This document shows positions 1-39,312 of a stretch of 64,000 nt of DNA, in pieces. Position 1 is the first letter of the stretch, and each line of letters opens with the position of its first letter. Under the pieces are notes generated by a model that had not been told where the DNA came from, did no database searches, and saw nothing but the letters and a program-made list of their open reading frames with translations. This stretch comes from Escherichia coli (GTDB lineage Bacteria; Pseudomonadota; Gammaproteobacteria; Enterobacterales; Enterobacteriaceae), in the NCBI RefSeq assembly GCF_044324785.1, contig NZ_CP172127.1, one strand, 5' to 3'. The translations under genes and the position numbers were made by a program.

Positions 1-726
1 TCTATTTTTGAGAGTGCTTTTGGCTGGCAGGAAGCGGCAGGCGGCGCGGCGGGATATACCTTAAGCCAGGCGATTACTAACGGTTTTCAGCGCAGTATGT
101 TTTCCAATGAGGCGGGAATGGGGTCGACGCCAAACGCGGCAGCGGCGGCTGCGTCCTGGCCTCCGCATCCCGCAGCGCAAGGAATTGTCCAGATGATTGG
201 CATTTTTATCGACACCCTGGTCATTTGTACGGCAAGCGCCATGCTGATATTACTGGCGGGTAACGGCACAACCTACATGCCGCTGGAAGGTATTCAGCTT
301 ATCCAAAAGGCGATGCGGGTGTTAATGGGTTCCTGGGGTGCGGAGTTTGTTACCCTCGTGGTTATTCTGTTTGCCTTCAGCTCCATCGTTGCCAACTACA
401 TTTATGCCGAAAACAATCTCTTCTTCTTACGCCTGAACAACCCTAAAACGATCTGGTGTCTGCGAATCTGCACCTTCGCAACGGTCATCGGCGGCACCTT
501 GCTAAGTCTTCCGCTGATGTGGCAACTGGCAGATATCATAATGGCCTGCATGGCTATTACCAATTTGACCGCCATTTTACTGCTCTCGCCTGTGGTTCAT
601 ACCATTGCCAGTGATTATCTACGCCAGCGTAAACTCGGCGTGCGCCCGGTGTTTGATCCGTTGCGTTATCCGGATATCGGTCGCCAGCTTTCTCCGGACG
701 CGTGGGATGATGTTTCGCAGGAGTAA
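1..726 (+). CDS. yaaJ: Alanine/glycine:cation symporter (AGCS family), C-terminal part; 5' end lies upstream of the window
   Basis: ORF track 97..726 is in frame from position 1; multi-TM hydrophobic sequence; position next to yaaA matches the K-12 order. Confidence 0.85.
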   Translation, partial: SIFESAFGWQEAAGGAAGYTLSQAITNGFQRSMFSNEAGMGSTPNAAAAAASWPPHPAAQGIVQMIGIFIDTLVICTASAMLILLAGNGTTYMPLEGIQLIQKAMRVLMGSWGAEFVTLVVILFAFSSIVANYIYAENNLFFLRLNNPKTIWCLRICTFATVIGGTLLSLPLMWQLADIIMACMAITNLTAILLLSPVVHTIASDYLRQRKLGVRPVFDPLRYPDIGRQLSPDAWDDVSQE

Positions 727-795
727 TCACAACTATCGATCAACTCATTCTCGTTTTTTGCTAAAGTCGGCATAAATTTCCTGCAAGGACTGGAT

Positions 796-1572
796 ATGCT
801 GATTCTTATTTCACCTGCAAAAACGCTCGATTACCAAAGCCCATTGCCCACCACGCGCTATACGCTGCCGGAGCTGTTAGACAATTCCCAGCAGTTGATC
901 CATGAAGCGCGGAAACTGACGCCTCCGCAGATTAGCACGCTGATGCGCATCAGCGACAAACTGGCGGGTATCAACGCCGCTCGCTTTCATGACTGGCAGC
1001 CAGATTTCACGCCGGAGAATGCCCGCCAGGCGATTCTGGCATTTAAAGGTGATGTCTACACCGGCTTGCAGGCCGAAACCTTCAGCGAAGACGATTTCGA
1101 TTTTGCCCAACAGCATTTGCGAATGCTTTCCGGCTTGTATGGCGTACTCCGCCCGCTCGATTTAATGCAGCCTTATCGTCTGGAAATGGGGATCCGTCTT
1201 GAGAATGCCCGAGGGAAAGATCTGTATCAATTCTGGGGAGATATCATCACCAACAAGCTGAACGAGGCGCTCGCAGCACAAGGCGATAATGTGGTGATTA
1301 ATCTGGCGTCAGATGAGTATTTTAAATCGGTGAAGCCGAAGAAATTGAATGCCGAGATTATCAAGCCGGTGTTCCTCGATGAGAAGAACGGCAAATTTAA
1401 GATCATCAGCTTCTACGCTAAGAAAGCACGCGGTCTGATGAGTCGTTTCATTATTGAAAATCGGCTGACCAAACCAGAGCAACTGACTGGTTTTAATAGC
1501 GAAGGTTACTTCTTTGATGAAGCTTCCTCCAGCAATGGCGAACTGGTGTTTAAACGCTACGAGCAGCGTTAA
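796..1572 (+). CDS. yaaA: Peroxide stress protein YaaA (UPF0246/DUF328)
   Basis: ORF track 258 aa, [13 protein letters not shown]...; same length and context as K-12 yaaA. Confidence 0.95.
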
Positions 1573-1583
1573 GTTTGTAGTCA

Positions 1584-1605
1584 ATGCCGGATGGCAATCC
1601 GGCAT
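1584..1605. terminator. Inverted repeat between convergent yaaA and yaaX (atgccgga-N6-tccggcat); possible bidirectional terminator
   Basis: 8-bp perfect inverted repeat read directly; no strong T-tract, so weak call. Confidence 0.4.
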
Positions 1606-1611
1606 TGATAT

Positions 1612-1908
1612 TTAGCGATGATGTTTGTCAGGCCCCGGACGATGATCGCCACGATGATCATTGTGCTTGTTATGGCGCGGCGATGGCGGCGGTCCATATG
1701 GGTGCCAGCGATTGCCTCGCCATTCATAATGTTGTTTCCACCAGCCGTGGTCGCGCCAGTGACCGCCATCCCAGTAATAGCCACGATTATCACGATCGCC
1801 TATCTGTAATTTTACTGAAGGGACTAACGTAATTTCCGCAGCCTGCGCTGCCATGGGAGCGACCAGAACCAGGGAAAGTGCGAGTACGATAGATTGCATC
1901 TTTTTCAC
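1612..1908 (-). CDS. yaaX: DUF2502 secreted His/Trp/Gly-rich protein YaaX
   Basis: ORF track 98 aa with signal peptide [23 protein letters not shown]; adjacent to thrC as in K-12. Confidence 0.85.
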
Positions 1909-2062
1909 AGGTTACTCCTTTTATCATTGCCCGTTATGGGTCGATATCCGGAGATTACGCGATGAGAACGGCGGTTGTTATTCTCCGCAATCCTAATCTC
2001 TAAGTTACCGCATTTATTGAGAATTTCTTCTTTTTCCCTGTCGTTTCTCTCCATATTTTCTT

Positions 2063-2099
2063 CACAAAAAAGCCGGGCTGCATAAAAGCAAACCCGGCC
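2063..2099 (-). terminator. thr operon terminator (hairpin gccggg-N15-cccggc followed by U-tract on the minus-strand transcript)
   Basis: Inverted repeat 2072-2098 with A-run 2065-2070 on the plus strand (= U-run after the hairpin for the minus transcript), 23 nt after the thrC stop. Confidence 0.7.
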
Positions 2100-2121
2100 T
2101 GATTGAGATAATGAATAGATA

Positions 2122-3408
2122 TTACTGATGATTCATCATCAATTTACGCAACGCAGCAAAATCGGCGGGCAGATTATGCGAAAGCAAGGGTAAATCGGCA
2201 CGTTCTGCCAGCTCTTTTGGCAGATCCAACGTTTCACCGAGAATCGCTTCCACGCTCTCTTTAAATTTCGCCGGATGCGCGGTGCCGAGGAACAAGCCAT
2301 ATTCGCCTGGATTCAACTGGTCACGCAGCGCACGATAAGCTACGGCAGCGTGCGGCTCCGAGGTGTAGCCCAGTTCTTTTAACTCACGCATTGTCTGTTG
2401 CGTGGTTTCATCATCCACGGCTGCATAACCCAGCTCTTTCAGTTGCCAGATTTTGCGGCGGAACAACTCTTCCACACGCGGCCAGTTGTTCGGCTGACTC
2501 ACGTCCATCGCGTTGGATAACGTCGCCTGAGTCGCTTTGGGGGACCACTGACCGTCGTGCAGGAAACGTGGCACGGTATCGTTCACGTTGGTCGCAGCAA
2601 TAAAACGTTTCACCGGCAAACCGAGTGACTTCGCCAGCAGACCCGCCGTCAAATCGCCGAAGTTTCCGCTTGGCACCGAGACAACCAGCTGGTTGCGCGC
2701 TTCCTGCGGCAGCTGCGCAACAGCTTCAAAGTAGTAGCAAATCTGCGCCAGCAAACGGCTGATGTTAATCGAGTTAGCCGAGTTTAACCCCAGCGCCACT
2801 TTCAGCTCTTCATCATCAAACGCCTGCTTCACCAGCGCCTGACAGGCATCGAAATCGCCGTCGATGGCAACAGTTTCAATATTGCCGCCCAATGTACAGA
2901 ACAGTTTTTCTTGCAGTGGACTGATTTTGCCTCGTGGATAGAGGATAACCACTTTCACATTCGGCAAACCGTAGAAAGCATGAGCCACTGCCGCTCCGGT
3001 ATCACCGGAGGTCGCGGTCAGAATGGTCACTGGCTTATCGCCCGCAATATGGGTCAGCATTTGTGCCATAAAGCGACCGCCGAAATCTTTAAATGCCAGC
3101 GTTGGCCCGTGGAACAATTCCAGACAACCGACATCGCTTTCAACATTGGCGACCGGAGCCGGGAAGGCAAACGCCGCGCGTACGCGCTCTTCCAGGATTT
3201 CCTGCGGGATTTCATCACCAATAAACGCCGAGAGGATCTTCGCACTGCGGGTGACAAAATCCAGCTTCAGCATCTCATCAATTTCAGTCAGGCTGAATTC
3301 CGGCAGGTCGTGCGGAAAAAACAGCCCCTGATTTTTGCCCAACCCCTGGGTTACGGCTTGCGCAAAGCTGACCTGCTCATTGTGATCTTTCAGATTGTAG
3401 AGTTTCAT
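2122..3408 (-). CDS. thrC: Threonine synthase
   Basis: ORF track 428 aa, MKLYNLKDHNEQVSFAQAVTQGLGK... Confidence 0.97.
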   Translation of the reverse strand: MKLYNLKDHNEQVSFAQAVTQGLGKNQGLFFPHDLPEFSLTEIDEMLKLDFVTRSAKILSAFIGDEIPQEILEERVRAAFAFPAPVANVESDVGCLELFHGPTLAFKDFGGRFMAQMLTHIAGDKPVTILTATSGDTGAAVAHAFYGLPNVKVVILYPRGKISPLQEKLFCTLGGNIETVAIDGDFDACQALVKQAFDDEELKVALGLNSANSINISRLLAQICYYFEAVAQLPQEARNQLVVSVPSGNFGDLTAGLLAKSLGLPVKRFIAATNVNDTVPRFLHDGQWSPKATQATLSNAMDVSQPNNWPRVEELFRRKIWQLKELGYAAVDDETTQQTMRELKELGYTSEPHAAVAYRALRDQLNPGEYGLFLGTAHPAKFKESVEAILGETLDLPKELAERADLPLLSHNLPADFAALRKLMMNHQ

Positions 3409-4341
3409 TTAGTTTTCCAGTACTCGTGCGCCCGCCGTATCCAGCCGGCAAATATGAACAAAACCTTCCTGATTTTGCAGGTAGTTATTACCCAACCAGT
3501 CGGCAACGCGCTGGGCGGTATCCGGCTTGTCACACAGAGCGAACAAGGTCGGGCCGGAGCCGGAGATACCGCTCGCTACCGCGCCGATTTCCGCGACCGC
3601 CTGCCGCGCCTGCCGGAAACCAGGCAGTAACCGTTCACGGTAGGGTTCAGCGATAACATCTTTCATCAGCTTCGCGGCAAGCTCAGGCTGACGGGAATAG
3701 CAGGCGTGAATGAAGCCTGCCAGATGTCGCCCGTGCGCAATGCAATCCTGGCGGCGATACTGCGCCGGTAAAATAGCCCTGGCTTCTGCCGTCGAGACTT
3801 TAATCCCCGGATACGCCAGCACCCACAGCCACTCATCAAACCCTGGCACTTGCTGGCTGATGATGTCGTTTTCTTCGATCATCAACTGCATACCACCAAG
3901 AAAACACGGTGCCACGTTGTCGTAATGAATGCTGCCGGAGATACGCCCTTCCAGCTCGCCCATCAAAGCCAGCAAACGGGTGTCATTAAGCGGCTTGCCG
4001 CAGTGTTCATTCATCGCCATCAGCGCCGCGACCACTGAGCAGGCGCTGGAGCCTAAGCCCGAGCCGATTGGCATATTCTTTTCCAGAGTCATCGCCACTG
4101 GAATTTGCTTACCCAGCTCCTGGCAAAAACGCTCCCAGCACTGATAAACGATATTTTCCCGAGGTTCTGACGGCAGCTTATCGGCAAAGCGTCCGAGGTT
4201 ATTGAGACTGAATGTCTCTGCCGCCTCAACCGTGACTACATCTCCGAGCAATGCACCATCAACGGGTGTCACCGCCGCCCCGAGCACATCAAACCCGACG
4301 CTCATATTGGCACTGGAAGCCGGGGCATAAACTTTAACCAT
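3409..4341 (-). CDS. thrB: Homoserine kinase
   Basis: ORF track 310 aa, [24 protein letters not shown]... Confidence 0.97.
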
Positions 4342-4342
4342 G

Positions 4343-6805
4343 TCAGACTCCTAACTTCCATGAGAGGGTACGTAGCAGATCGGCAAAGACACCGGCAGCT
4401 GTAACGTCATTGCCCGCACCATATCCGCGCAGCACCAACGGCAGCGGCTGATAATAGTGGCTATAGAAGGCCAGGGCGTTTTCGCCGTTTTTCACTTTGA
4501 ACAGCGGATCATTACCATCCACTTCGGCAATCTTCACGCGACAGACGCCATCTTCATCAATATTGCCAACATAGCGCAAAACTTTTCCTTCATCACGGGC
4601 CTTCGCCACGCGAGCGGCAAAGCGATCGTCGAGCTGTGACAGATTCGCCATAAAAGCGGCAACATCACCCTCGGCGTTAAACTCTGCGGGCAGCACAGGT
4701 TCAATTTCAATATCCGCCAGCTCCAGTTCACGTCCCGTTTCACGAGCGAGAATCAATAGTTTACGCGCCACATCCATACCAGAAAGATCATCTCGCGGGT
4801 CCGGTTCGGTATAACCCATTTCCCGCGCCAGCGTGGTCGCCTCGGAGAAACTCATGCCTTCGTCTAACTTGCCGAAGATATAAGAAAGCGAACCAGAAAG
4901 AATGCCGGAGAACTTCATCAATTCATCACCTGCATTGAGCAGATTTTGCAGGTTCTCAATAACCGGTAATCCAGCCCCAACGTTGGTGTCATAGAGGAAT
5001 TTACGCCGCGATTTTTCCGCCGCATGACGCAACAGATGGTAGTAATCCATCGACGAGGTGTTAGCCTTTTTGTTCGGCGTAACAACGTGGAAACCCTCGC
5101 GCAGGAAGTCGGCATATTGATCCGCCACTGCCTGGCTGGAGGTGCAGTCAACAATGACCGGGTTCAGCAGATGATATTCTTTCACGAGGCGAATTAAGCG
5201 CCCGAGATTAAACGGCTCTTTGGCTTGCGCCAGTTCTTCCTGCCAGTTTTCCAGATTAAGGCCATGTACATTGGTGAGCAGAGCCTTCGAGTTGGCAACA
5301 CCGCAGACACGTAAGTCGATATGTTTATTCTTCAGCCAGCTTTGCTGACGCTTCAGTTGCTCCAGCAGCGCACCGCCAACGCCACCGACGCCAATCACAA
5401 ACACTTCGATAACCTGATCGGTATTGAACAGCATCTGATGAGTAACGCGCACGCCAGTGGTCGCATCATCGTTATTTACCACGACAGAGATTGAGCGTTC
5501 AGAAGATCCCTGAGCAATGGCGACAATGTTGATATTGGCGCGGGCCAGCGCGGCAAAGAATTTCGCCGAGATCCCACGCAAGGTGCGCATACCATCACCT
5601 ACCACCGAGATAATGGCCAGCCGTTCCGTCACCGCCAGCGGCTCCAGTAAGCCTTCTTTCAGTTCCAGGTAGAACTCTTCCTGCATTGCCCGTTCAGCTC
5701 GCACACAGTCGCTTTGTGGAACGCAGAAACTGATACTGTATTCGGAAGATGATTGCGTAATCAGCACCACGGAAATACGGGCGCGTGACATCGCTGCAAA
5801 GACGCGCGCCGCCATGCCGACCATTCCTTTCATCCCCGGACCAGAAACGCTGAACATTGCCATGTTATTCAGATTGGAAATGCCCTTGACCGGTAATTCG
5901 TCTTCATCACGGCTGGCACCAATGAGCGTACCTGGTGCTTGAGGATTTCCGGTATTTTTAATCAGGCAAGGGATCTGGAACTGGGCGATGGGGGTAATTG
6001 TGCGGGGGTGAAGAACTTTAGCGCCGAAGTAGGAAAGCTCCATCGCTTCCTGGTAGGACATCGACTTCAACAACCTCGCATCGGGCACCTGACGCGGGTC
6101 GCAGGTATAGACCCCGTCAACGTCCGTCCAAATCTCGCAACAATCGGCGCGTAAACAGGCAGCCAGCACCGCAGCAGAGTAGTCGGAACCGTTGCGTCCA
6201 AGCACCACCAGTTCGCCTTTTTCATTACCGGCGGTGAAACCTGCCATCAGCACCATGTGATCAGCCGGAATACGACTTGCCGCAATACGGCGGGTGGACT
6301 CAGCAATATCGACGGTAGATTCGAGGTAATGCCCCACTGCCAGCAGTTTTTCGACCGGATCGATAACGGTAACGTTGTGACCGCGCGCTTCTAATACGCC
6401 GGCCATAATGGCGATCGACATTTTCTCGCCACGGCAAATCAGCGCAGCGTTGATGCTATCCGGGCACTGCCCCAACAAACTAATGCCATGCAGGACATGT
6501 TTTATTTGGGCAAATTCCTGGTCGACGAAAGTTTTCAGTTGCGCCAGCGGGAATCCCGGCTGAGCGGCGGCGAGTCCCGTCAGAAGTTCGGCAAAAATAC
6601 GTTCGGCATCGCTGATATTGGGTAAAGCATCCTGGCCGCTAATGGTTTTTTCAATCATCGCCACCAGGTGGTTGGTGATTTTGGCGGGGGCAGAGAGGAC
6701 GGTGGCCACCTGCCCCTGCCTGGCATTGCTTTCCAGAATATCGGCAACCCGCAGAAAACGTTCTGCATTTGCCACTGATGTACCGCCGAACTTCAACACT
6801 CGCAT
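4343..6805 (-). CDS. thrA: Bifunctional aspartokinase I / homoserine dehydrogenase I
   Basis: ORF track 4343..6847; start set at the internal [17 protein letters not shown] (820 aa) as in K-12. Confidence 0.96.
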
Positions 6806-6830
6806 GGTTGTTACCTCGTTACCTTTGGTC

Positions 6831-6862
6831 GAAAAAAAAGCCCGCACTGTCAGGTGCGGGCT
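6831..6862 (-). terminator. thr attenuator (rho-independent terminator of the leader transcript)
   Basis: Minus-strand transcript reads AGCCCGCACCUGACAGUGCGGGC followed by a U8 run, directly downstream of thrL. Confidence 0.9.
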
Positions 6863-6885
6863 TTTTTCTGTGTTTCCTGTACGCG

Positions 6886-6954
<69 letters not shown>

Positions 6955-7001
6955 TGTTGTGTACTCTGTAATTTTTATCTGTCTGTGCGCTATGCCTATA
7001 T

Positions 7002-7030
7002 TGGTTAAAGTATTTAGTGACCTAAGTCAA
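7002..7030 (-). promoter_or_regulatory. thr operon promoter (-35 TTGACT, 17-bp spacer, -10 TAACCA on the minus strand)
   Basis: Hexamers read from the sequence at 7025-7030 and 7002-7007 (reverse complement); matches the known thr promoter region. Confidence 0.65.
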
Positions 7031-7164
7031 TAAAATTTTAATTTACTCACGGCAGGTAACCAGTTCAGAAGCTGCTATCAGACACTCTTTTTTTAATCCA
7101 CACAGAGACATATTGCCCGTTGCAGTCAGAATGAAAAGCTGAAAAATACTTACTAAGGCGTTTT

Positions 7165-7851
7165 TTATTTGGTGATATTTTTTTCAATATCATGCAGCAA
7201 ACGGTGCAACATTGCCGTGTCTCGTTGCTCTAAAAGCCCCAGGCGTTGTTGTAACCAGTCGACCAGTTTTATGTCATCTGCCACTGCCAGAGTCGTCAGC
7301 AGTGCCATGGCTCGTTCGCGTAAAGCTTGCAGTTGATGTTTGTCTGCCGTTGTGTCACTTTTCGCCGGTTGTTGTATTAATGTTGCTAATTGATAGCAAT
7401 AGACCATCACCGCCTGCCCAAGATTGAGCGAAGGATAATCCGCCACCATCGGCACACCAGTAAGAACGTCAGCCAACGCTAACTCTTCGTTAGTCAGCCC
7501 GGAATCTTCGCGACCAAACACCAGCGCGGCATGGCTCATCCATGAAGATTTTTCCTCTAACAGCGGCACCAGTTCTACTGGCGTAGCGTAGTAATGATAT
7601 TTCGCCCGACTGCGCGCAGTGGTGGCGACAGTGAAATCGACATCGTGTAACGATTCAGCCAGTGTCGGGAAAACTTTAATATTATCAATAATATCACCAG
7701 ATCCATGTGCGACCCAGCGGGTGGCTGGCTCCAGGTGCGCCTGACTATCGACAATCCGCAGTTTGCTAAACCCCATCGTTTTCATTGCCCGCGCCGCTGC
7801 CCCAATATTTTCTGCTCTGGCGGGTGCGACCAGAATAATCGTTATACGCAT
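7165..7851 (-). CDS. lasT: SpoU/TrmH-family tRNA/rRNA methyltransferase LasT
   Basis: ORF track 7165..7872; start set at MRITIILVAPARAENIGAAARAMK (228 aa). Confidence 0.9.
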   Translation of the reverse strand: MRITIILVAPARAENIGAAARAMKTMGFSKLRIVDSQAHLEPATRWVAHGSGDIIDNIKVFPTLAESLHDVDFTVATTARSRAKYHYYATPVELVPLLEEKSSWMSHAALVFGREDSGLTNEELALADVLTGVPMVADYPSLNLGQAVMVYCYQLATLIQQPAKSDTTADKHQLQALRERAMALLTTLAVADDIKLVDWLQQRLGLLEQRDTAMLHRLLHDIEKNITK

Positions 7852-8250
7852 ATTGCCACTCTTCTTGATCAAATAACCGCGAACCGGGTGATCACTGTCA
7901 ACTTATTACGCGGTGCGAATTTACAAATTCTTAACGTAAGTCGCAGAAAAAGCCCTTTACTTAGCTTAAAAAAGGCTAAACTATTTCCTGACTGTACTAA
8001 CGGTTGAATTGTTAAAAAATGCTACATATCCTTCTGTTTACTTAGGATAATTTTATAAAAAATAAATCTCGACAATTGGATTCACCACGTTTATTAGTTG
8101 TATGATGCAACTAGTTGGATTATTAAAATAATGTGACGAAAGCTAGCATTTAGATACGATGATTTCATCAAACTGTTAACGTGCTACAATTGAACTTGAT
8201 ATATGTCAACGAAGCGTAGTTTTATTGGGTGTCCGGCCCCTCTTAGCCTG

Positions 8251-8391
8251 TTATGTTGCTGTTAAAATGGTTAGGATGACAGCCGTTTTTGACACTGTCG
8301 GGTCCTGAGGGAAAGTACCCACGACCAAGCTAATGATGTTGTTGACGTTGATGGAAAGTGCATCAAGAACGCAATTACGTACTTTAGTCAT
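8251..8391 (-). CDS. yjjY: Small protein YjjY (46 aa)
   Basis: Reverse-complement translation MTKVRNCVLDALSINVNNIISLVVGTFPQDPTVSKTAVILTILTAT*; below the ORF-track size cut-off. Confidence 0.7.
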   Translation of the reverse strand: MTKVRNCVLDALSINVNNIISLVVGTFPQDPTVSKTAVILTILTAT

Positions 8392-8486
8392 GTTACGCCG
8401 ATCATGTTAATTTGCAGCATGCATCAGGCAGGTCAGGGACTTTTGTACTTCCTGTTTCGATTTAGTTGGCAATTTAGGTAGCAAAC

Positions 8487-9203
8487 ATGCAGACCCCGCA
8501 CATTCTTATCGTTGAAGACGAGTTGGTAACACGCAACACGTTGAAAAGTATTTTCGAAGCGGAAGGCTATGATGTTTTCGAAGCGACAGATGGCGCGGAA
8601 ATGCATCAGATCCTCTCTGAATATGACATCAACCTGGTGATCATGGATATCAATCTGCCGGGTAAGAACGGTCTTCTGTTAGCGCGTGAACTGCGCGAGC
8701 AGGCGAATGTTGCGTTGATGTTCCTGACTGGCCGTGACAACGAAGTCGATAAAATTCTCGGCCTCGAAATCGGTGCAGATGACTACATCACCAAACCGTT
8801 CAACCCGCGTGAACTGACTATTCGTGCACGCAACCTGCTGTCCCGTACCATGAATCTGGGGACTGTCAGCGAAGAACGTCGTAGCGTTGAAAGCTACAAG
8901 TTCAATGGTTGGGAACTGGACATCAACAGCCGTTCGTTGATCGGCCCTGATGGCGAGCAGTACAAGCTGCCGCGCAGCGAGTTCCGCGCCATGCTTCACT
9001 TCTGTGAAAACCCAGGCAAAATTCAGTCCCGTGCTGAACTGCTGAAGAAAATGACCGGCCGTGAGCTGAAACCGCACGACCGTACTGTAGACGTGACGAT
9101 CCGCCGTATTCGTAAACATTTCGAATCTACGCCGGATACGCCGGAAATCATCGCCACCATTCACGGTGAAGGTTATCGCTTCTGCGGTGATCTGGAAGAT
9201 TAA
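8487..9203 (+). CDS. arcA: Aerobic respiration control response regulator ArcA
   Basis: ORF track 238 aa, [43 protein letters not shown]... Confidence 0.97.
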
Positions 9204-9220
9204 TCGGCTTTACCACCGTC

Positions 9221-9258
9221 AAAAAAAACGGCGCTTTTTAGCGCCGTTTTTATTTTTC
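9221..9258. terminator. Bidirectional rho-independent terminator between convergent arcA and creD
   Basis: A8 run, stem aacggcgc / gcgccgtt with 6-nt loop, then T-rich run; read directly. Confidence 0.85.
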
Positions 9259-9262
9259 AACC

Positions 9263-10615
9263 TTATTTCCAGATACGTAATTCATCGTCCGTTGTAACTT
9301 CTTTACTGGCTTTCATTTTCGGCAGTGAAAACGCATACCAGTCGATATTACGGGTCACAAACATCATGCCGGCCAGCGCCACCACCAGCACACTGGTTCC
9401 CAACAACAGCGCGCTATCGGCAGAGTTGAGCAGTCCCCACATCACACCATCCAGCAACAACAGCGCGAGGGTAAACAACATGCTATTGCGCCAGCCTTTC
9501 AATACCGCCTGCAAATAAATACCGTTCATTAACGCCCCAATCAGACTGGCGATTATCCATGCCACGGTAAAACCGATATGTTCAGAAAGCGCCAGCAAGA
9601 GCAAATAAAACATCACCAATGAAAGCCCCACCAGCAAATATTGCATTGGGTGTAAACGTTGCGCGGTGAGCGTTTCAAAAACAAAGAACGCCATAAAAGT
9701 CAGTGCAATCAGCAGAATGGCGTACTTAGTCGCCCGGTCAGTTAATTGGTATTGATCGGCTGGCGTCGTCACTGCGACGCTAAACGCCGGGAAGTTTTCC
9801 CAGCCGGTATCATTGCCTGAAGCAAAACGCTCACCGAGATTATTAGCAAACCAGCTGCTTTGCCAGTGCGCCTGAAAACCTGACTCGCTAACTTCCCGTT
9901 TGGCTGGTAGAAAATCACCTAAAAAACTGGGATGCGGCCAGTTGCTGGTTAAGGTCATTTCGCTATTACGCCCGCCAGGCACCACAGAAAGATCGCCGGT
10001 ACCGCTTAAATTCAGGGCCATATTCAGCTTCAGGTTCTGCTTCCGCCAGTCCCCTTCAGGTAAAGGGATATGCACGCCCTGCCCGCCTTGCTCTAACCCG
10101 GTGCCGGGTTCAATGGTCAGCGCCGTTCCGTTAACTTCAGGCGCTTTCACCACACCAATACCACGCGCATCCCCGACGCTAATCACAATAAATGGCTTGC
10201 CTAAGGTGATATTTGGCGCGTTGAGTTCGCTAAGACGCGAAACATCGAAATCGGCTTTTAGCGTTAAATCACTGTGCCAGACCTGACCGGTATAAATCCC
10301 TATCTTGCGTTCTTCCACGTTCTGATTGCCATCAACCATCAATGACTCAGGTAACCAAAAATGGATAAAACTTCGTTTCCGCTCCACGGTTTTATCCTCT
10401 TCCTGCACCGTATAAAGCTCGGTCACAGGAATAGCGATGAGCGGCCCAACGAGTTTTTGCGGCCCGCTGGTACTTTGGCGAATCGCATCTTCCACATCGC
10501 TACGGTAATCAGCACGTTCGACAATCACCTGCCGAATCAGCATTATCGGAATCAACAACAGCAATACTGCACCAAACAGGGTGGTCATTTTCCAGAGCAG
10601 GGGGGATTTCAACAT
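9263..10615 (-). CDS. creD: Inner membrane protein CreD
   Basis: ORF track 450 aa; last gene of the creABCD operon. Confidence 0.93.
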   Translation of the reverse strand: MLKSPLLWKMTTLFGAVLLLLIPIMLIRQVIVERADYRSDVEDAIRQSTSGPQKLVGPLIAIPVTELYTVQEEDKTVERKRSFIHFWLPESLMVDGNQNVEERKIGIYTGQVWHSDLTLKADFDVSRLSELNAPNITLGKPFIVISVGDARGIGVVKAPEVNGTALTIEPGTGLEQGGQGVHIPLPEGDWRKQNLKLNMALNLSGTGDLSVVPGGRNSEMTLTSNWPHPSFLGDFLPAKREVSESGFQAHWQSSWFANNLGERFASGNDTGWENFPAFSVAVTTPADQYQLTDRATKYAILLIALTFMAFFVFETLTAQRLHPMQYLLVGLSLVMFYLLLLALSEHIGFTVAWIIASLIGALMNGIYLQAVLKGWRNSMLFTLALLLLDGVMWGLLNSADSALLLGTSVLVVALAGMMFVTRNIDWYAFSLPKMKASKEVTTDDELRIWK

Positions 10616-10672
10616 AGTCTTCTCCTTTGCAATGGCAGCAGGATACGAAGGCTATGTGGGAAGAATTTGAAG

Positions 10673-12097
10673 CTATGTGAAGTGACGGTGAAGTCGAAGC
10701 GAAGCCAGCACGCCACCTTCCTGCACGTTGCGCAGCGTGACTTCGCCGTTAAACAAACGGGCGACCTCACTGACGAACGCCAACCCCAGACCGCTGCTTT
10801 TTTGCCCATTTGCACGCGGCAAAGAGTAAAAGCGTTCAAAAATACGTGAAAGCGCGTAGTCAGGAATACCACTACCGGTATCCAGCACCTTAAGCGTGAC
10901 GTGTTCCTGATCCACTTCGGCGCTTAGCGTGATGCAACCGCTCTCGGGGGTAAAATCGATGGCGTTATCCAGTAAATTTCCCAGCGCCTGCTCCAGTAAC
11001 GCCGGTTCAGCAGCAACATTAACCTCGGTGGGCGTAACATGCAGAGTGATTTTTTTTTCTGCCAACTGCACGGTGCGCGCTTCGCTGACGCGGCGAAATA
11101 ATGCCGCCACATCAACAGCAGTCAGAACGACTTCCTGACGATTCTCCAGTCTTGCCTGGCGTAGTAACGTTTCTACTAATGCCTGCATACGCGCATTTTG
11201 CGTCAGAATGTTGTCAGTAAAACGAGCCACCACTTCCGGCGGCGGACCTTCGCGTAAAATTTCCGCCGCGCCACGAATCGCCGCCAGTGGGCTTTTTAGC
11301 TCATGGGTTAACGCATAAACATACTGCTCAATATAGTTTTTCCCTTCCAGCTTCACGCGCATACTTTCCAGCGCCTGCGCGAGTTTACGCAGCTCGCTAC
11401 TACCGAGATCGGGGAGAGGAACGGGCTTATTGTCAGTGACGGAATCAGCATAGCGAGTGAGCCGGGCAATGGAGCGGTTGATCCACCAAACCATGCCTGC
11501 GCCAATCACCAGTGCAATCCCCAACAAAATGGCGCTGGCCCATAAAATTCGCCGCTCGCTGCGCTTAATGACCGGAGCCATCGCCGCGTTCGGTTTGCCT
11601 ACGCTCAAAACGCCAATAAGCCGCGAGCCGTCCATAATCGGCGCGGCAACATACATCACCGAACTTTCGGGATCGGCAGGATTTTGCAACGTGCTGCGCG
11701 CACCATACTGACCACGCAACGTTAGCCAGACGTCATTCCAGCGCGAATAATCCTGTCCAACGGCTTTATTTGCCGAATCGAACAATACTTTGCCCTGCGC
11801 ATCGGTCATATAGACATGATATTCATTGCGCACTTTGTTAATGCCACCGATATTGGCGCGAAACGGGCGATGCTGTAGCTGATTAAACGCCTGCGCCAGT
11901 TGCCCATGCGTTGGGTCCCCAGAGAGCAAATCGGGACGCGCCAGCTCCGCCAGCAACGTTGCGGTGTCGATCAACGTCCCCTCCGTTGCTCTTCGCACGC
12001 CCGGTTTAACTTCTTTGACAAAAATAGCCAGTACGAACCAGGCCGCCACCGCCACCAGTAAAAAATAGCCCAGCAGCAACCGCATGCCGATACGCAT
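10673..12097 (-). CDS. creC: Sensor histidine kinase CreC
   Basis: ORF track 474 aa; HAMP and HisKA/HATPase motifs; overlaps the creB stop. Confidence 0.95.
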   Translation of the reverse strand: MRIGMRLLLGYFLLVAVAAWFVLAIFVKEVKPGVRRATEGTLIDTATLLAELARPDLLSGDPTHGQLAQAFNQLQHRPFRANIGGINKVRNEYHVYMTDAQGKVLFDSANKAVGQDYSRWNDVWLTLRGQYGARSTLQNPADPESSVMYVAAPIMDGSRLIGVLSVGKPNAAMAPVIKRSERRILWASAILLGIALVIGAGMVWWINRSIARLTRYADSVTDNKPVPLPDLGSSELRKLAQALESMRVKLEGKNYIEQYVYALTHELKSPLAAIRGAAEILREGPPPEVVARFTDNILTQNARMQALVETLLRQARLENRQEVVLTAVDVAALFRRVSEARTVQLAEKKITLHVTPTEVNVAAEPALLEQALGNLLDNAIDFTPESGCITLSAEVDQEHVTLKVLDTGSGIPDYALSRIFERFYSLPRANGQKSSGLGLAFVSEVARLFNGEVTLRNVQEGGVLASLRLHRHFT

Positions 12098-12786
12098 TAC
12101 AGGCCCCTCAGGCTATATCCCATGCCGCGATGAGTATTAATCGGTGAAAGATCGGGGTTGATGGCGCGCAACTTGGCACGCAGCGTTTTAATGTGGGTAT
12201 CGACGGTGCGATCGTAGGTGTCCTGCGCATCTTCCCACACGCTATCCATCAGTTGCTGGCGGGACCAGACGCGGCCTGGCGACTTGAGTAACGTCTTCAG
12301 CAATAAAAACTCATACCGCGTCAGCGCTAATGGCGTGTCAAACCAGCAGATCTGCGCCGCGGGTTCATTCAATTCAAAATGTCCAATACGGATGACGGGA
12401 GACGGCATCGAGAATTTCTTCACCCGACGCAGTAAGGTGCGCACCCTGGCGCACACTTCGCGAGGTGAAAACGGTTTAGCCACGTAGTCGTCAGCGCCAA
12501 TTTCCAGCCCAAGCAGGCGATCGACCTCTTCACTTCGGGCCGTCAGGAACAGTACAGGTAACGCCGGATGGAGCACCAGTAACTGGCGGCACAATTCAAA
12601 GCCGCTAATATCCGGCAGACCAACATCGAGAATCATGACGTCGGGTACCTGCTGGCGAGCTTTATCCAGCACCGGCAAGCCTCGCTCAAAGACCTCGACG
12701 GCAAAACCTTCCTGCTGCAACATGTAGACCAGCGTGTCGGCTATCCCTTGCTCATCTTCCACTAACCAGACCGTTTCCCGTTGCAT
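12097..12786 (-). CDS. creB: Response regulator CreB (OmpR family)
   Basis: ORF track 229 aa, MQRETVWLVEDEQGIADTLVYMLQQEGF... Confidence 0.95.
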   Translation of the reverse strand: MQRETVWLVEDEQGIADTLVYMLQQEGFAVEVFERGLPVLDKARQQVPDVMILDVGLPDISGFELCRQLLVLHPALPVLFLTARSEEVDRLLGLEIGADDYVAKPFSPREVCARVRTLLRRVKKFSMPSPVIRIGHFELNEPAAQICWFDTPLALTRYEFLLLKTLLKSPGRVWSRQQLMDSVWEDAQDTYDRTVDTHIKTLRAKLRAINPDLSPINTHRGMGYSLRGL

Positions 12787-12798
12787 AAATCGCCTCTG

Positions 12799-13272
12799 TT
12801 ATTGCCGCCACGGCATGACAGGAACCGCGCTAATCGCGTTTTTCGGCGAACCTTCTACAACTTTGTCGGAGTAAGCCAGATAAGCGAGCGCGTTGCGTTT
12901 GGCGTCATAAAAGCGCACGACCTGTAACGACTTAAAGACCAGGGACGTGCGTTTTTTGAATACTACCTCGCCCTGAGCTTTGCCGTTTTTAATACGATCC
13001 GACAGTTCAATCGGCCCGACTTGCTGACAAGAAATGGCCGCATCGGAGGTATCTTCCGCCAGACCCAATCCCCCTTTAATACCACCGGTTTTCGCCCGGC
13101 TCACATAACAGGTGACATTTTTCACATCGGGATCGTCAAAGGCTTCCACAACAATTTTGTGATCCGGGCCGATCATTTTAAATACGGTGTCGACCGAACC
13201 AATCTCTTCTGCATGAGCCAATGGCCCCAGCATTATCAGGCTTAAAGACAGGATCAAATGCTTGTATTTCAT
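12799..13272 (-). CDS. creA: Periplasmic protein CreA
   Basis: ORF track 157 aa with signal peptide [21 protein letters not shown]. Confidence 0.92.
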
Positions 13273-13482
13273 ATTGTTACCATTTTTATCTATTACACGA
13301 GCAATTAGTTCGTCACGGTAAATAACATATTGATTAAGAACAAAATCTCAATACTTTTATTTCCGTCAAGCCCTAAAACATACTCTACTAAGAAAAAAAC
13401 ACTGAATGCTAAAACAGCAAAAAATGCTATTATCCAATTACCTGATGTCAGGTGCTCGTTGTTGAAAGGATGAGGATATTTT

Positions 13483-14352
13483 ATGGATCAGGCCGGCATT
13501 ATTCGCGACCTTTTAATCTGGCTGGAAGGTCATCTGGATCAGCCCCTGTCGCTCGACAATGTAGCGGCGAAAGCAGGTTATTCCAAGTGGCACTTACAGA
13601 GAATGTTTAAAGATGTCACTGGCCATGCTATTGGCGCGTATATTCGTGCTCGTCGTTTGTCGAAATCGGCGGTCGCACTACGCCTGACTGCGCGTCCGAT
13701 TCTGGACATCGCGCTGCAATACCGCTTCGACTCTCAACAGACATTTACCCGCGCATTCAAGAAGCAGTTTGCCCAGACTCCTGCACTTTACCGCCGTTCT
13801 CCTGAATGGAGCGCCTTTGGTATTCGCCCGCCGCTACGTCTGGGTGAATTCACTATGCCAGAGCACAAATTTGTCACCCTGGAAGATACGCCGCTGATTG
13901 GTGTTACCCAGAGCTACTCCTGTTCGCTGGAGCAAATCTCTGATTTCCGCCATGAAATGCGTTATCAGTTCTGGCACGATTTTCTCGGCAACGCGCCGAC
14001 CATTCCGCCGGTGCTCTACGGCCTGAATGAAACGCGTCCGAGTCAGGATAAAGACGACGAACAAGAAGTATTCTATACCACCGCGTTAGCCCAGGATCAG
14101 GCAGATGGCTATGTACTGACGGGGCATCCGGTGATGCTGCAGGGCGGCGAATATGTGATGTTTACCTATGAAGGTCTGGGAACCGGCGTGCAGGAGTTTA
14201 TCCTGACGGTATACGGAACGTGCATGCCAATGCTCAACCTGACGCGCCGTAAAGGTCAGGATATTGAGCGATACTACCCGGCAGAAGATGCCAAAGCGGG
14301 AGATCGCCCAATTAATCTGCGCTGTGAACTACTGATTCCGATCCGTCGTTAA
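13483..14352 (+). CDS. rob: AraC/XylS-family transcriptional activator Rob
   Basis: ORF track 289 aa, MDQAGIIRDLLIWLEGHLDQPLSLDNVAAKAGYSKWHLQRMFKDVTG... Confidence 0.96.
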   Translation: MDQAGIIRDLLIWLEGHLDQPLSLDNVAAKAGYSKWHLQRMFKDVTGHAIGAYIRARRLSKSAVALRLTARPILDIALQYRFDSQQTFTRAFKKQFAQTPALYRRSPEWSAFGIRPPLRLGEFTMPEHKFVTLEDTPLIGVTQSYSCSLEQISDFRHEMRYQFWHDFLGNAPTIPPVLYGLNETRPSQDKDDEQEVFYTTALAQDQADGYVLTGHPVMLQGGEYVMFTYEGLGTGVQEFILTVYGTCMPMLNLTRRKGQDIERYYPAEDAKAGDRPINLRCELLIPIRR

Positions 14353-14996
14353 CGCTGCAGCTCATCTAATGCAGGGGCGTCCAGATGCGAGATGTCCCCT
14401 GCGGTTTCAACGACCCAGCCAGACGCCAGCCACAGGCTTTCCTGATAATCCACGCGCGAAATAGAACAGTTACGCAAACGTAAGCGACGCTCTGCCCATG
14501 CTGGTAATCCGAGAATCGTACTCACCAGGCATCCCAGTGCAATACCGTGGCTCACCAGCAGCGGTCGGCTTCCCTGCGGTAAGTCCCGGCAAGATTCCAG
14601 TGCCGCATTGACGCGATCGCTGAGCTCCTGCATTGACTCGCCTTCAGGAATACGCCCGTCAACGGTGCCATTGACCAGCTGCCGACGCCAGTTCTCTTCT
14701 TCTTCGGTCAGAGAATCGATATGTCTTTTTTCCAGCACACCCATGTTTAATTCACGCAGGCGAGAATCAAAGATGATGTCACAGCCGCAGGCCTGGGCGA
14801 TGATTTCCGCCGTACGCCGGGTGCGTCCTAAATCGCTACTGATGATATGCGTAATGCCAAGCTCTTTGGCACGGGTTGCCACCTGCATCGCCTGTTGCTC
14901 ACCTTTGGCGGTCAGCGGGCTGTCAGACTGGCCCTGAATACGTCGCTCGGCGTTCCACTGCGTTTCACCGTGGCGGACTAGGTATACCTGTAACAT
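14349..14996 (-). CDS. gpmB: Histidine-phosphatase family phosphoglycerate mutase GpmB
   Basis: ORF track 215 aa, MLQVYLVRHGETQWNAERRIQGQSDSPLT... Confidence 0.93.
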   Translation of the reverse strand: MLQVYLVRHGETQWNAERRIQGQSDSPLTAKGEQQAMQVATRAKELGITHIISSDLGRTRRTAEIIAQACGCDIIFDSRLRELNMGVLEKRHIDSLTEEEENWRRQLVNGTVDGRIPEGESMQELSDRVNAALESCRDLPQGSRPLLVSHGIALGCLVSTILGLPAWAERRLRLRNCSISRVDYQESLWLASGWVVETAGDISHLDAPALDELQR

Positions 14997-15035
14997 GCTT
15001 TTTTTCCGTATACTGCTGTAACGTTAATTTTCTGA

Positions 15036-15898
<863 letters not shown>

Positions 15899-15930
15899 TT
15901 AGCGGGGGAAGCAAAATGCCTCCCCCGGTT

Positions 15931-15948
15931 GTACTCGCTAAAGAGTAC
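15931..15948 (-). promoter_or_regulatory. TrpR operator in the trpR promoter (GTACTC-N6-GAGTAC palindrome)
   Basis: Minus strand reads ATCGTACTCTTTAGCGAGTACAACC, about 48 nt upstream of the trpR start. Confidence 0.8.
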
Positions 15949-15972
15949 GATAGCATATCATAAACGTGCGGA

Positions 15973-17910
15973 TCAGTAACGACGTCCCCATTCCGTGGCG
16001 CTCATCAATGTCGGTTTATCCCCCATGAAATAGCGGTAGTAAGCGTCATAAGCCAGCACGTTCTTCACATAACCGCGCGTCTCGGAGAACGGAATACTCT
16101 CGACAAATGCCACTGCGTCGATACGCCCGGCGCTGTTGCCAAGCCAGGTTCGCACCCGCCCTGGTCCGGCGTTATAAGCTGCTGAGGAGAAAATACGGTT
16201 ATTACCAAACTGCTGATAAACATATTGCAGGTAACTGGTGCCAATGTTGATGTTCGTTTCCGGATCCAGCAATTGTCCTGGGCTGCTATAACCAGGAATA
16301 GAGAACATCTTCACCGTATGGGTCGCCGTGCCCGGCATAATCTGCATCAGGCCGCTGGCCCCTACCGGTGATTTCACTTTCGGATTCCAGGCACTCTCCT
16401 GACGGGCAATCGCCATCGCATAGCTTTGCGGGATCTCCTTCCCACTGGTGTAACGTTTGAAAAGATCGTTGTAGGCCAGCGGGAATCTCTCTTCCAGATG
16501 ATCCCAAAGCTTCCCGGCGATCGTTGCCTGAACGCTAAGATCCCACCATTGGTTATTGAAAGCATACCGAGCCAGTTGCGCCTGCTCTGTTTTTGACTTG
16601 CTCTTCACCAGATTGGCCCACTCGCTACGCGCGGTATTATCGAGATTCCAGTACATCAACTCGCGCACGCGCGCCATCTCCGGCCCCTGAGTCAGGGCGC
16701 TGTCAACATTCTGCGGCGCTTTATCAATCTTCAGCTCATACTCTTCACCGATGCGTTGTGCTGCAACCATCGGGTAGAAACCACGCTGTTGCATGAGTTG
16801 ATGCAAAATCTCTTTTGCTTCAGCTTCACGTCCGCGTTCCAGCAGTAAATCCGCCTGCCAGTAACGCCATTCATCTTTCTCTTTCGCCTCCATCGGCAAA
16901 CGCGCCAGCCAGGTATTCAGGCCGCGACGATCGCCGGTGCCAAGCGCCATTCGCACACGGCGTTCAATAAGCGAAGTAGATTGCGAACGCATAATGGCGT
17001 CATCACGCCATTTCGCCTGTTCGTCGGTGACATCGTTGCCCATCAAACGCCAGGCGACGATATCGCGCAGCTCCTGAATCTGATCTTCATTAAGCTGCTG
17101 CGCCTGGGCAAGCGACGGGATCATCAGCCGTGCATTTTCAGCATCCTGCCGCGCCACACTGGCAAACGCCACCGCCGCCATTTGACGGGTAAAATCGGTC
17201 GCTCCGGTTGTACGCGCGAAGGTCAGTACCGTATTAGGATTGTTCGCCAATGAAATAATTGCCGAGGCGATAGTCTGGTAATCGGCAGGCATCTGCCCTG
17301 CCAGCACTGTTACGAGGCCAGTGTTACCCGCTTTCATCGCCAGACGGATACGCTCTAAATACGCCAGCGGATCTTGTTTACCTGACGCACGCCAGACGCT
17401 AAATAACTTGTCACAGGCGTTAGGCTGGCTCTTGCCGGTTAGCCACAGCTCTTTCGCCCCTTGCCAGGCTTCTTCACTCTGCCCGGTGTTCCATTTTGCA
17501 TAGTAGTAATTACATTGCGCTTCGGTAGTTCCGGGCTTTTCCGGGCTAAAGGCTAACAAGCCACGCCAGTCTTCACGCCGCGCCAGTTCATTGACGAAAC
17601 GAGATTGCAGCGTGCGAGCGGGAGGAAGCGTGGGGTTAGCGCGAACAAAGTTAGTGACCGTCACCGCCGGTTGATTCATCAGATCATCGGTGATCTGGCG
17701 GTATTCCAGGTAGGGATAAAGCGGATAATCCTTCAGTCCAGGCATCATTTGTTCGACCACATCCATCTGTCGATTATCCCAGGCCTGCTTGATTTGCGCG
17801 TAACGGCTACGCTGCTCATCCAGTGAGTCGGCTCGCGCCACGCTGCTGACCGTCAGCAGACAGACACCGGCAGCCAACAGCCGCCAGGTAACTTGTTTGG
17901 CTTTTTCCAC
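15973..17910 (-). CDS. slt: Soluble lytic murein transglycosylase Slt70
   Basis: ORF track 15973..17940; start set at the GTG codon giving (M)EKAKQVTWRLLAAGVCLL (645 aa). Confidence 0.93.
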   Translation of the reverse strand: MEKAKQVTWRLLAAGVCLLTVSSVARADSLDEQRSRYAQIKQAWDNRQMDVVEQMMPGLKDYPLYPYLEYRQITDDLMNQPAVTVTNFVRANPTLPPARTLQSRFVNELARREDWRGLLAFSPEKPGTTEAQCNYYYAKWNTGQSEEAWQGAKELWLTGKSQPNACDKLFSVWRASGKQDPLAYLERIRLAMKAGNTGLVTVLAGQMPADYQTIASAIISLANNPNTVLTFARTTGATDFTRQMAAVAFASVARQDAENARLMIPSLAQAQQLNEDQIQELRDIVAWRLMGNDVTDEQAKWRDDAIMRSQSTSLIERRVRMALGTGDRRGLNTWLARLPMEAKEKDEWRYWQADLLLERGREAEAKEILHQLMQQRGFYPMVAAQRIGEEYELKIDKAPQNVDSALTQGPEMARVRELMYWNLDNTARSEWANLVKSKSKTEQAQLARYAFNNQWWDLSVQATIAGKLWDHLEERFPLAYNDLFKRYTSGKEIPQSYAMAIARQESAWNPKVKSPVGASGLMQIMPGTATHTVKMFSIPGYSSPGQLLDPETNINIGTSYLQYVYQQFGNNRIFSSAAYNAGPGRVRTWLGNSAGRIDAVAFVESIPFSETRGYVKNVLAYDAYYRYFMGDKPTLMSATEWGRRY

Positions 17911-18120
17911 AAGCGCATCCTCTAAGTGTAAATACATCAATGCAGCGTCATGCCGCGTAATAGATTTATGCTAACCAGTCATTGCCGTTTACGCCACGTT
18001 ACGGACACTTTTTTACTTTTATCGGGAGGGTGATCGACCGGCTGGGATTAGATAAGGAAACAGGCTACACTTCGCCTTTGAAAACTCATCATCACGATAA
18101 ACATAGAGGCGAAGTCCAAC

Positions 18121-19788
18121 GTGGCTCAATTCGTTTATACCATGCATCGTGTCGGCAAAGTTGTTCCGCCGAAACGTCATATTTTGAAAAACATCTCTCT
18201 GAGTTTCTTCCCTGGGGCAAAAATTGGTGTCCTGGGTCTGAACGGCGCGGGTAAGTCCACCCTGCTGCGCATTATGGCGGGCATTGATAAAGACATCGAA
18301 GGCGAAGCGCGTCCGCAACCGGATATCAAGATTGGTTATCTGCCGCAGGAACCGCAGCTGAACCCGGAACACACCGTGCGTGAGTCCATTGAAGAAGCGG
18401 TTTCTGAAGTGGTTAACGCCCTGAAACGCCTGGATGAAGTGTATGCGCTGTACGCCGATCCGGATGCCGATTTTGACAAGCTGGCCGCTGAACAAGGCCG
18501 TCTGGAAGAGATCATTCAGGCTCACGACGGTCACAACCTGAACGTTCAGCTGGAGCGTGCGGCGGATGCGCTGCGTCTGCCGGACTGGGACGCGAAAATC
18601 GCTAACCTCTCCGGTGGTGAGCGTCGTCGCGTGGCGTTGTGCCGCCTGCTGCTGGAAAAACCAGACATGCTGCTGCTCGACGAACCGACCAACCACCTGG
18701 ATGCCGAATCCGTGGCCTGGTTGGAACGCTTCCTGCACGACTTCGAAGGCACCGTGGTGGCGATTACCCACGACCGTTACTTCCTTGATAACGTTGCAGG
18801 CTGGATCCTCGAACTGGACCGCGGTGAAGGTATTCCGTGGGAAGGCAACTACTCCTCCTGGCTGGAGCAGAAAGATCAACGTCTGGCGCAGGAAGCTTCA
18901 CAAGAAGCTGCGCGTCGTAAGTCGATTGAGAAAGAGCTGGAGTGGGTACGTCAGGGAACTAAAGGCCGTCAGTCGAAAGGTAAAGCACGTCTGGCGCGTT
19001 TTGAAGAGCTGAACAGCACCGAATATCAGAAACGTAACGAAACCAACGAACTGTTTATTCCACCAGGACCGCGTCTTGGCGATAAAGTGCTGGAAGTCAA
19101 CAACCTGCGTAAATCCTATGGCGATCGTCTGCTGATTGATGACCTGAGCTTCTCGATCCCGAAAGGAGCGATCGTCGGGATCATCGGTCCGAACGGTGCG
19201 GGTAAATCGACCCTGTTCCGTATGATCTCTGGTCAGGAACAGCCGGACAGCGGCACCATCACTTTGGGTGAAACGGTGAAACTGGCATCGGTTGATCAGT
19301 TCCGTGACTCAATGGATAACAGCAAAACCGTTTGGGAAGAAGTTTCCGGCGGGCTGGATATCATGAAGATCGGCAACACCGAGATGCCAAGCCGTGCCTA
19401 CGTTGGCCGCTTTAACTTTAAAGGGGTTGATCAGGGTAAACGCGTTGGCGAACTCTCCGGCGGTGAGCGCGGTCGTCTGCATCTGGCGAAGCTGCTGCAG
19501 GTTGGCGGCAACATGCTGCTGCTCGACGAACCAACCAACGACCTGGATATCGAAACCCTGCGCGCGCTGGAAAACGCCCTGCTGGAGTTCCCGGGCTGCG
19601 CGATGGTTATCTCGCACGACCGTTGGTTCCTCGACCGTATCGCCACGCACATTCTGGATTACCAGGATGAAGGTAAAGTTGAGTTCTTCGAAGGTAACTT
19701 TACCGAGTACGAAGAGTACAAGAAACGCACGCTGGGCGCAGACGCGCTGGAGCCGAAGCGTATCAAGTACAAGCGTATTGCGAAGTAA
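18121..19788 (+). CDS. ettA: ABC-F energy-dependent translational throttle protein EttA (YjjK)
   Basis: ORF track 555 aa, MAQFVYTMHRVGKVVPPKRHILKNISLSFFPGAKIGVLGLNGAGKSTLL...; two ABC domains. Confidence 0.97.
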   Translation: MAQFVYTMHRVGKVVPPKRHILKNISLSFFPGAKIGVLGLNGAGKSTLLRIMAGIDKDIEGEARPQPDIKIGYLPQEPQLNPEHTVRESIEEAVSEVVNALKRLDEVYALYADPDADFDKLAAEQGRLEEIIQAHDGHNLNVQLERAADALRLPDWDAKIANLSGGERRRVALCRLLLEKPDMLLLDEPTNHLDAESVAWLERFLHDFEGTVVAITHDRYFLDNVAGWILELDRGEGIPWEGNYSSWLEQKDQRLAQEASQEAARRKSIEKELEWVRQGTKGRQSKGKARLARFEELNSTEYQKRNETNELFIPPGPRLGDKVLEVNNLRKSYGDRLLIDDLSFSIPKGAIVGIIGPNGAGKSTLFRMISGQEQPDSGTITLGETVKLASVDQFRDSMDNSKTVWEEVSGGLDIMKIGNTEMPSRAYVGRFNFKGVDQGKRVGELSGGERGRLHLAKLLQVGGNMLLLDEPTNDLDIETLRALENALLEFPGCAMVISHDRWFLDRIATHILDYQDEGKVEFFEGNFTEYEEYKKRTLGADALEPKRIKYKRIAK

Positions 19789-39310: not shown

Positions 39311-39312
39311 CA

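Follow-up and report, generated by a model that had tools for sequence, protein, structure and literature searches.

Has the short gap between yaaA and yaaX in this genome lost something that K-12 keeps, or was it never filled in the first place? The DNA that we analysed, a stretch of 64,000 nucleotides from Escherichia coli (hereafter the window), corresponds, in reverse complement, to the thrABC–yaaX–yaaA–yaaJ region of E. coli, and the convergent ends of the two genes are separated in it by only 39 bp. The initial annotation, working from approximate K-12 coordinates, had put this spacer at some 110 bp less than its K-12 counterpart and suggested the 'loss or absence' of a small repetitive element. 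We think that the 39-bp spacer is probably the unoccupied, ancestral-type state of the locus, furnished with one REP-derived hairpin that is likely to work as a terminator or stabiliser, and that the BIME-1 seen in K-12 is an addition to it.

What does K-12 have that the window does not?

In K-12 MG1655 (NC_000913.3), yaaX lies at 5234-5530 and yaaA at 5683-6459, which leaves a spacer of 152 bp (5531-5682); the boundaries given for K-12 in the initial annotation (5530 and 5683) were exact, and so was the spacer of about 150 bp deduced from them. Alignment of the interval with the K-12 reference, the check that had been proposed, gives a difference of 113 bp, and K-12 does not have the same 39-bp spacer. 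The genes themselves leave little doubt about the identity of the locus, with the last 300 nt of yaaA being 99.7% identical to K-12 yaaA. The features of the window that are discussed here are collected in Table 1.

Table 1. Features at the yaaA–yaaX junction, in window coordinates
Feature	Coordinates	Strand	Basis and remarks
yaaA CDS (peroxide stress protein YaaA)	796..1572	+	ORF list; RefSeq annotation of matching regions; stop TAA 1570-1572
yaaA–yaaX spacer, 39 bp, 'empty' allele without BIME-1	1573..1611	.	between convergent genes
GTAG tetranucleotide	1577..1580	+	5 nt (TCAAT) upstream of the GCCGGAT foot; aligned to the reverse complement of the y REP
Palindromic hairpin	1580..1609	.	arms TCAATGCCGGAT (1581-1592) and ATCCGGCATTGA (1597-1608), loop GGCA (1593-1596), perfect stem
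10-bp unit AATGCCGGAT (left arm)	1583..1592	+	one copy here; two or three in tandem in other strains
REP-foot core GCCGGAT-GGCA-ATCCGGC	1586..1603	.	y REP outer stem minus the apical ~15 nt
Divergent haplotype block	1593..1700	.	hairpin loop, right arm and last ~90 nt of yaaX
yaaX CDS (DUF2502 protein, 98 aa, GTG start)	1612..1908	-	ORF list; RefSeq annotation of matching regions

The additional K-12 DNA is a 112-bp BIME-1, consisting of a y REP, a linker (L) and a z1 REP, and it sits directly 5' of the hairpin that the locus retains. When compared with the REP consensus sequences quoted in PMC11208160, the y REP agrees at 33 of 35 positions (spacer positions 13-47; K-12 coordinates 5636-5670) and the z1 REP at all 37 of 37 (spacer positions 82-118; K-12 coordinates 5565-5601). 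The two stand in inverse orientation around a linker of 34-35 nt, which is how a BIME-1 is recognised: a y and a z1 REP, inversely oriented, on either side of a long, conserved linker in which an IHF site is frequent (PMC3333891). The same search of the window spacer against the y and z1 consensus found no complete y REP and no z1 REP. The K-12 linker resembles those of other BIME-1 copies and contains ATTCAATATATTG, which differs by one mismatch from the IHF consensus (WATCAANNNNTTR) and which we take to be a putative, IHF-like site. Presumably the whole element is the feature RIP1, placed at about 5565-5669 in U00096, with which our own parse (5565-5670) agrees; the RefSeq feature table of NC_000913.3 holds no repeat feature at the yaaA–yaaX spacer.

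Read in order, the K-12 spacer runs from GTTTGCAGTC through AATGCCGGATG, which leads into the y REP, to the linker, the z1 REP, GCTG and finally AATGCCGGAT-TGTTAC-CCGGCATT, this last being a weakened copy of the hairpin. The BIME-1 is bracketed by two copies of AATGCCGGAT, of which the right one is an arm of the resident hairpin. It is tempting to see a target-site duplication in this pair of 10-mers, and we rejected the idea: the 11-mer AATGCCGGATG, with which both the BIME-1 and the hairpin arm begin, commonly forms the native left end of y REPs elsewhere, so that the left 10-mer can be the element's own end.

None of this is a new kind of variation. Strains are known to differ in the BIMEs that they carry at a locus (PMC3333891; bioRxiv 10.64898/2026.03.23.713779) and in where their REPs lie (bioRxiv 10.64898/2026.03.23.713779), and the presence or absence of a BIME at a locus, including the targeting of REPs by IS621, is a polymorphism of an already known type. 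The yaaA–yaaX spacer shares with the BIME-1 (RIP) presence-absence polymorphism its setting at a variable E. coli intergenic locus, with the difference that the window holds the empty allele.

What is the hairpin that remains?

A single hairpin is all that the window's spacer contains, as had been annotated, and only the 8-bp stem ascribed to it needs correction: there are 12 Watson-Crick pairs, to which G1580·U1609 adds a thirteenth in the + strand RNA, the - strand RNA folding with the same 12. An 8-bp stem is what the K-12 allele has, around an 8-nt loop (AATGCCGG/CCGGCATT). In the window the stem begins 8-9 nt past the yaaA stop and finishes 3 nt before the yaaX stop; its predicted free energy is -22.3 kcal/mol (z = -7.4 against 200 dinucleotide shuffles, none of which folded as well), and the folding z values recorded for the hairpin are -7.4, -5.3 and -4.9. 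The surroundings of the stop codons (window 1567-1620; GCGUUAAG from yaaA, and UUUAGCG, complementary to the yaaX stop) also pair with one another in the predicted + strand RNA, adding a lower stem beneath the main hairpin that brings the energy to -28.7 kcal/mol, and they do likewise in the K-12 and Nissle alleles.

Where might such a structure come from? The pattern GCCGGAT..ATCCGGC occurs four times in the window, with 0.01 matches expected, so the hairpin is not a chance feature. When the hairpin is aligned with the y REP consensus TGCCGGATGCGGCGTAAACGCCTTATCCGGCCTAC, the match is confined to the foot (TGCCGGAT plus ATCCGGC); here, over TGCCGGAT(G)...ATCCGGC(A), it does not differ from a y REP. 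Close by stands a GTAG, perhaps a vestige of the tetranucleotide, GTAG or CTAC, that is conserved at the very foot of REPs; it is polymorphic, being GCAG in K-12, EcN and SMS-3-5 in our strain comparison. In addition, (T)GTAGT(C/A)(A/C)ATG(C/T)CGGAT, which takes in the left arm together with the flank upstream of it, aligns with the Citrobacter sequence just after yaaA, where it makes up the left half of a REP-type hairpin of full length. The hairpin is like a y REP, then, in its foot, in its place in the 3' UTR between convergent genes and in its positional orthology to a complete Citrobacter REP, but unlike one in lacking the apical ~15 nt and the stem mismatch, in having its GTAG 5 nt off the foot and variable, and in being single-copy. 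A REP is described as an imperfect palindrome of 30-40 nt with an internal mismatch or bubble (PMC3333891), whereas ours is a perfect palindrome of 28 nt with a 4-nt loop and no bubble; REPs are also present in many copies per genome, and the central 30-mer of the window spacer is found exactly once per genome in every one of the 866 genomes, among 5426 complete E. coli genomes, that carry it. On these sequence features we regard 'REP remnant' as the accurate label, and the hairpin would be the shortened descendant of a REP that has stood downstream of yaaA since before Escherichia and Citrobacter parted.

The REP foot turns up elsewhere in the window as well, in a y+z2 BIME at 35799-35875 that bears an IS621 target (GTAGGCCTGAT), in a REP cluster at 39310-39430 and in another short 'mini-REP' hairpin (GCCGGATGAAATACTCATCCGGC) at 63728-63750, right after the end of an ORF.

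How common is the short spacer?

We surveyed 5426 complete E. coli genomes, in 5424 of which the locus is present. The intact K-12-type spacer with BIME-1 is found in 3367 (62%), and the flanks lie more than 720 bp apart in about 660 (~12%; 5424 minus 4764). Some three quarters of sequenced E. coli carry BIME-1 at yaaA–yaaX. In 199 of the 5426 genomes (3.7%) the 10-bp arm forms a tandem array of two or three units. The remainder, about 22%, have the one-hairpin form, 866 of them with the exact sequence of the window and others with a GGTA loop or a GTA flank; the window's own allele is already on record in hundreds of finished genomes.

Named strains make the picture more concrete. The window spacer is identical to those of JJ1886 and IAI39, and a 39-bp spacer is also found in SMS-3-5 and APEC O2:K1, while K-12, IAI1, O157:H7 and H10407 have 152 bp. 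The 10-bp arm, present once in the window, is present twice in E2348/69 and three times in CFT073 and Nissle (a strain comparison whose loci include CP195804), and slippage at the palindrome is one possible cause of the change in copy number. We take JJ1886 (ST131) and APEC O2:K1 to belong to phylogroup B2, IAI39 and SMS-3-5 to F, K-12 to A and IAI1 to B1; the reference strains compared by name represent groups other than D, with UMN026 (NC_011751) lying outside the collection. The spacer measures 39 bp in B2/F-type strains such as ST131; E2348/69 and CFT073/Nissle have 49 or 59 bp, strains of groups A, B1 and E have 152 bp, and an inserted IS621 brings the length to ~1.4 kb. The locus had been called a minor strain marker, and that description holds, since the state of the spacer differs between strains (39-bp and 152-bp forms): the indel is a handy lineage marker, of little importance beyond strain typing. 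As to the window's own lineage, the best match to its first 20,000 nucleotides (1-20000) among the 5426 genomes is 99.2% identical over 20 kb and only 44 genomes reach 99%, the closest being strain N3, ST2747 strains, MS 69-1 and NRZ14408, and the window seems to come from a lineage that is sparsely sampled.

What lies between the widely separated flanks? In both of the two genomes that we inspected (CP019267, 3286-4560, and CM177019), IS621 has entered the z1 REP at GTAG^GCCTGAT, which is the reverse complement of the natural IS621 target ATCAGGCCTAC (PMC11208160). These two split BIME-1 alleles resemble other insertions of IS621, a member of the IS110 family with a bridge-RNA recombinase, into REPs. 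A spread sample searched with an IS621 junction query was consistent with the ~660 large-insertion genomes; the query also matched IS621 in other BIME-1 copies, and so it yields no exact count for yaaA–yaaX. The window allele differs in having no ATCAGGCCTAC at yaaA–yaaX, and it therefore cannot host IS621 at this locus.

Was the element lost, or was it never there?

The indel sits inside a stretch of divergent sequence with sharp limits. Against K-12, the divergent block of Table 1 shows 17 mismatches, a 6-bp deletion and 6 bp of insertions, whereas its flanks show 1 mismatch in 535 nt on the left and about 3 in 250 nt on the right. The block takes in the His/Pro/Gly-rich C-terminal tail of YaaX (...PRHHKKAPHDHHGGHGPGKHHR in K-12), and this part of yaaX (window 1612-1700) has two strongly differing forms in linkage with the state of the spacer, set between flanks that are ~99% identical; within about 90 nt they are told apart by 17 substitutions and compensating 6-bp indels. 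The window-type tail resembles the ...HRPGPDRKHH of Citrobacter and Enterobacter, and in the final 100 nt of yaaX each of the four outgroups examined has a higher identity with the window type (71, 66, 65 and 63%) than with the K-12 type (61, 63, 58 and 62%, respectively). The two versions also cross species boundaries: the K-12-type block is common to E. albertii and Escherichia sp. MOD1-EC7003 (of a cryptic clade), the short type, with the same kind of hairpin, is found in two Escherichia species representatives, L006 and the divergent E1V33, and Nissle is a mosaic with K-12-like flanks and a short-type tail and spacer.

Could the window nevertheless descend from a K-12-like ancestor whose BIME-1 was recently deleted, by recombination or slippage between the direct copies of AATGCCGGAT? 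The two 10-mers do flank the element in K-12, the element is old, given that E. albertii and MOD1-EC7003 carry it, and we have direct evidence that precise loss of this sort is possible, though rare, in that clean excision of the 112-bp BIME-1 between the 10-mers has occurred in just three of the 5426 genomes (HH97, AJ6 and HH45). These were identified with a junction-only 32-mer, which replaced a 98-nt synthetic 'excised K-12' query that could not separate one-piece from two-piece matches. What such excision leaves behind is a 40-bp spacer, GTCAATGCCGGATTGTTACCCGGCATTTGTCAT, on the K-12-type haplotype: the loop and right arm of the true products are still of the K-12 type (TGTTACCCGGCATTTGTCAT, 40 bp), and so is their yaaX, which is 97.6-99.7% identical to that of K-12 and ~89% to that of the window. 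The window, by contrast, has a GGCA loop, a perfect stem and a yaaX tail like that of other genera, with 17 substitutions plus indels, and because excision alone cannot yield this combination of loop, stem and tail, we think it very unlikely that the allele arose by recent loss. As for the thought that the short spacer might be a collapsed repeat, REPs are repetitive and could in principle be mis-assembled, but the same 39-bp spacer in finished JJ1886 and IAI39 and the single-copy diagnostic 30-mer in 866 complete genomes refute it, and we give an assembly artefact practically no chance at all.

Absence of BIME-1, and not a recent deletion derivative, is thus the reading that we favour for the window spacer, because the linked block is divergent, the yaaX tail is outgroup-like and the known excision products are distinct from the window; of the two terms in the original 'loss or absence' of an element now recognisable as BIME-1, it is absence that fits better. 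The age of the element has a consequence here, which is that the polarity of the change rests on the linked sites and on the more distant outgroups. We would picture an old haplotype, in the K-12-type lineage, that gained a BIME-1 beside a resident REP remnant, with the BIME-1 haplotype and the empty haplotype since shuffled among Escherichia lineages by recombination. This direction, a gain in the K-12-type haplotype, appears well supported by comparison of the sequences, in a sample that does not extend to E. fergusonii, without being proven. A bolder proposal would be that the block of some 110-220 bp (yaaX tail plus spacer) is an old cross-species polymorphism, kept by selection or moved by recombination, and that the gain of BIME-1 alters the expression of yaaA (peroxide stress) and yaaX between phylogroups; we mention it as a speculation that is unlikely to be right. 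More generally, the locus illustrates how a REP cluster can build up beside a resident REP-like hairpin.

What might the hairpin do?

The layout of the locus in other Enterobacteria offers a good starting point. We scanned one genome per species for YaaA and extracted the region downstream, which gave 80 enterobacterial species loci, and in 41 of these yaaX follows yaaA. In 35 of the 41, the spacer measures 25-47 nt and forms one strong hairpin, unrelated in sequence and with a folding energy between -14.7 and -25.9 kcal/mol; the other six are E. albertii and Escherichia sp. MOD1-EC7003 with BIME-1, two species with two hairpins and two nearly without a spacer. With a single hairpin in 35 of 41 species, one hairpin is the conserved layout, and the window matches it. 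Many of the 35 are flanked by A and T tracts, for example AAAACCCCGCCAGCTGGCGGGGTTTTG in Enterobacter and its equivalents in Buttiauxella, Kluyvera and Leclercia, and to judge by their composition these are textbook bidirectional terminators.

The hairpin of Escherichia resembles such bidirectional intrinsic terminators in being a single GC-rich stem-loop, strongly folded at -22.3 kcal/mol, right past the stop codons of both convergent genes, but it differs from them in that its U tracts are poor on both strands, the tails being UAUUUAGC (RNA UAUUUAG) after yaaA and CUACAAAC after yaaX. A consensus terminator and promoter scan, with a threshold of 5 or more T in 8 nt, passed over the hairpin because its T tail is weak; an Rfam scan of 700-2200 at E ≤ 1 returned nothing at the hairpin and one spurious snoRNA match inside yaaA, and a search of the literature found no mapped 3' ends or terminator data for yaaA or yaaX. 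Most REPs are located between genes that are convergent or in tandem, and they have been proposed to be bidirectional terminators or blocks to decay (bioRxiv 10.64898/2026.03.23.713779). We infer a role for the hairpin in bidirectional termination, in stabilising 3' ends, or in both: forming in the RNA at the 3' ends of the two convergent transcripts, it could serve as a weak terminator in both directions, as a block to 3' exonucleases, or as both, in the way proposed for REPs between convergent genes.

It could of course be argued that the hairpin is simply the inert relic of a decayed REP, with no part in termination or stability, and that the length of the spacer has no phenotype. The missing canonical U tract, terminator call and Rfam match would all suit that idea, as would the tolerance in the population of loop and flank SNPs and of duplications of the 10-bp arm, and the persistence in the K-12 allele of a hairpin weakened to 8 bp. 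Yet the stem is perfect in the short alleles, with SNPs confined to the loop or to positions outside the core stem, and 35 of 41 species have an equivalent strong hairpin of unrelated sequence, which speaks in favour of selection for structure here; on balance we consider an inert relic unlikely, if the least improbable of the alternatives raised here. On our preferred reading, in which the hairpin would have a role at the 3' ends, and provided that REPs modulate how 3' UTRs behave, as has recently been proposed, there could be a slight difference between the two alleles in the termination or mRNA stability of yaaA and yaaX.

The survey also brought to light some quite different arrangements. 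yaaX is absent from 29 of the 80 enterobacterial species loci, including those of many Citrobacter, Salmonella, Klebsiella, Trabulsiella and Kosakonia, and in loci without it thrC directly follows yaaA, and one or two REP-type hairpins frequently lie between the two genes. In Enterobacter sp. kpr-6 (2275-2445 of the extracted locus), the single terminator hairpin is replaced by an array of ~45-nt palindromic repeats downstream of yaaA, of the form CCCTCACC(C/T)TAACCCTCT(C/T)CCC..GGGGAGA(G/A)GGGAC.
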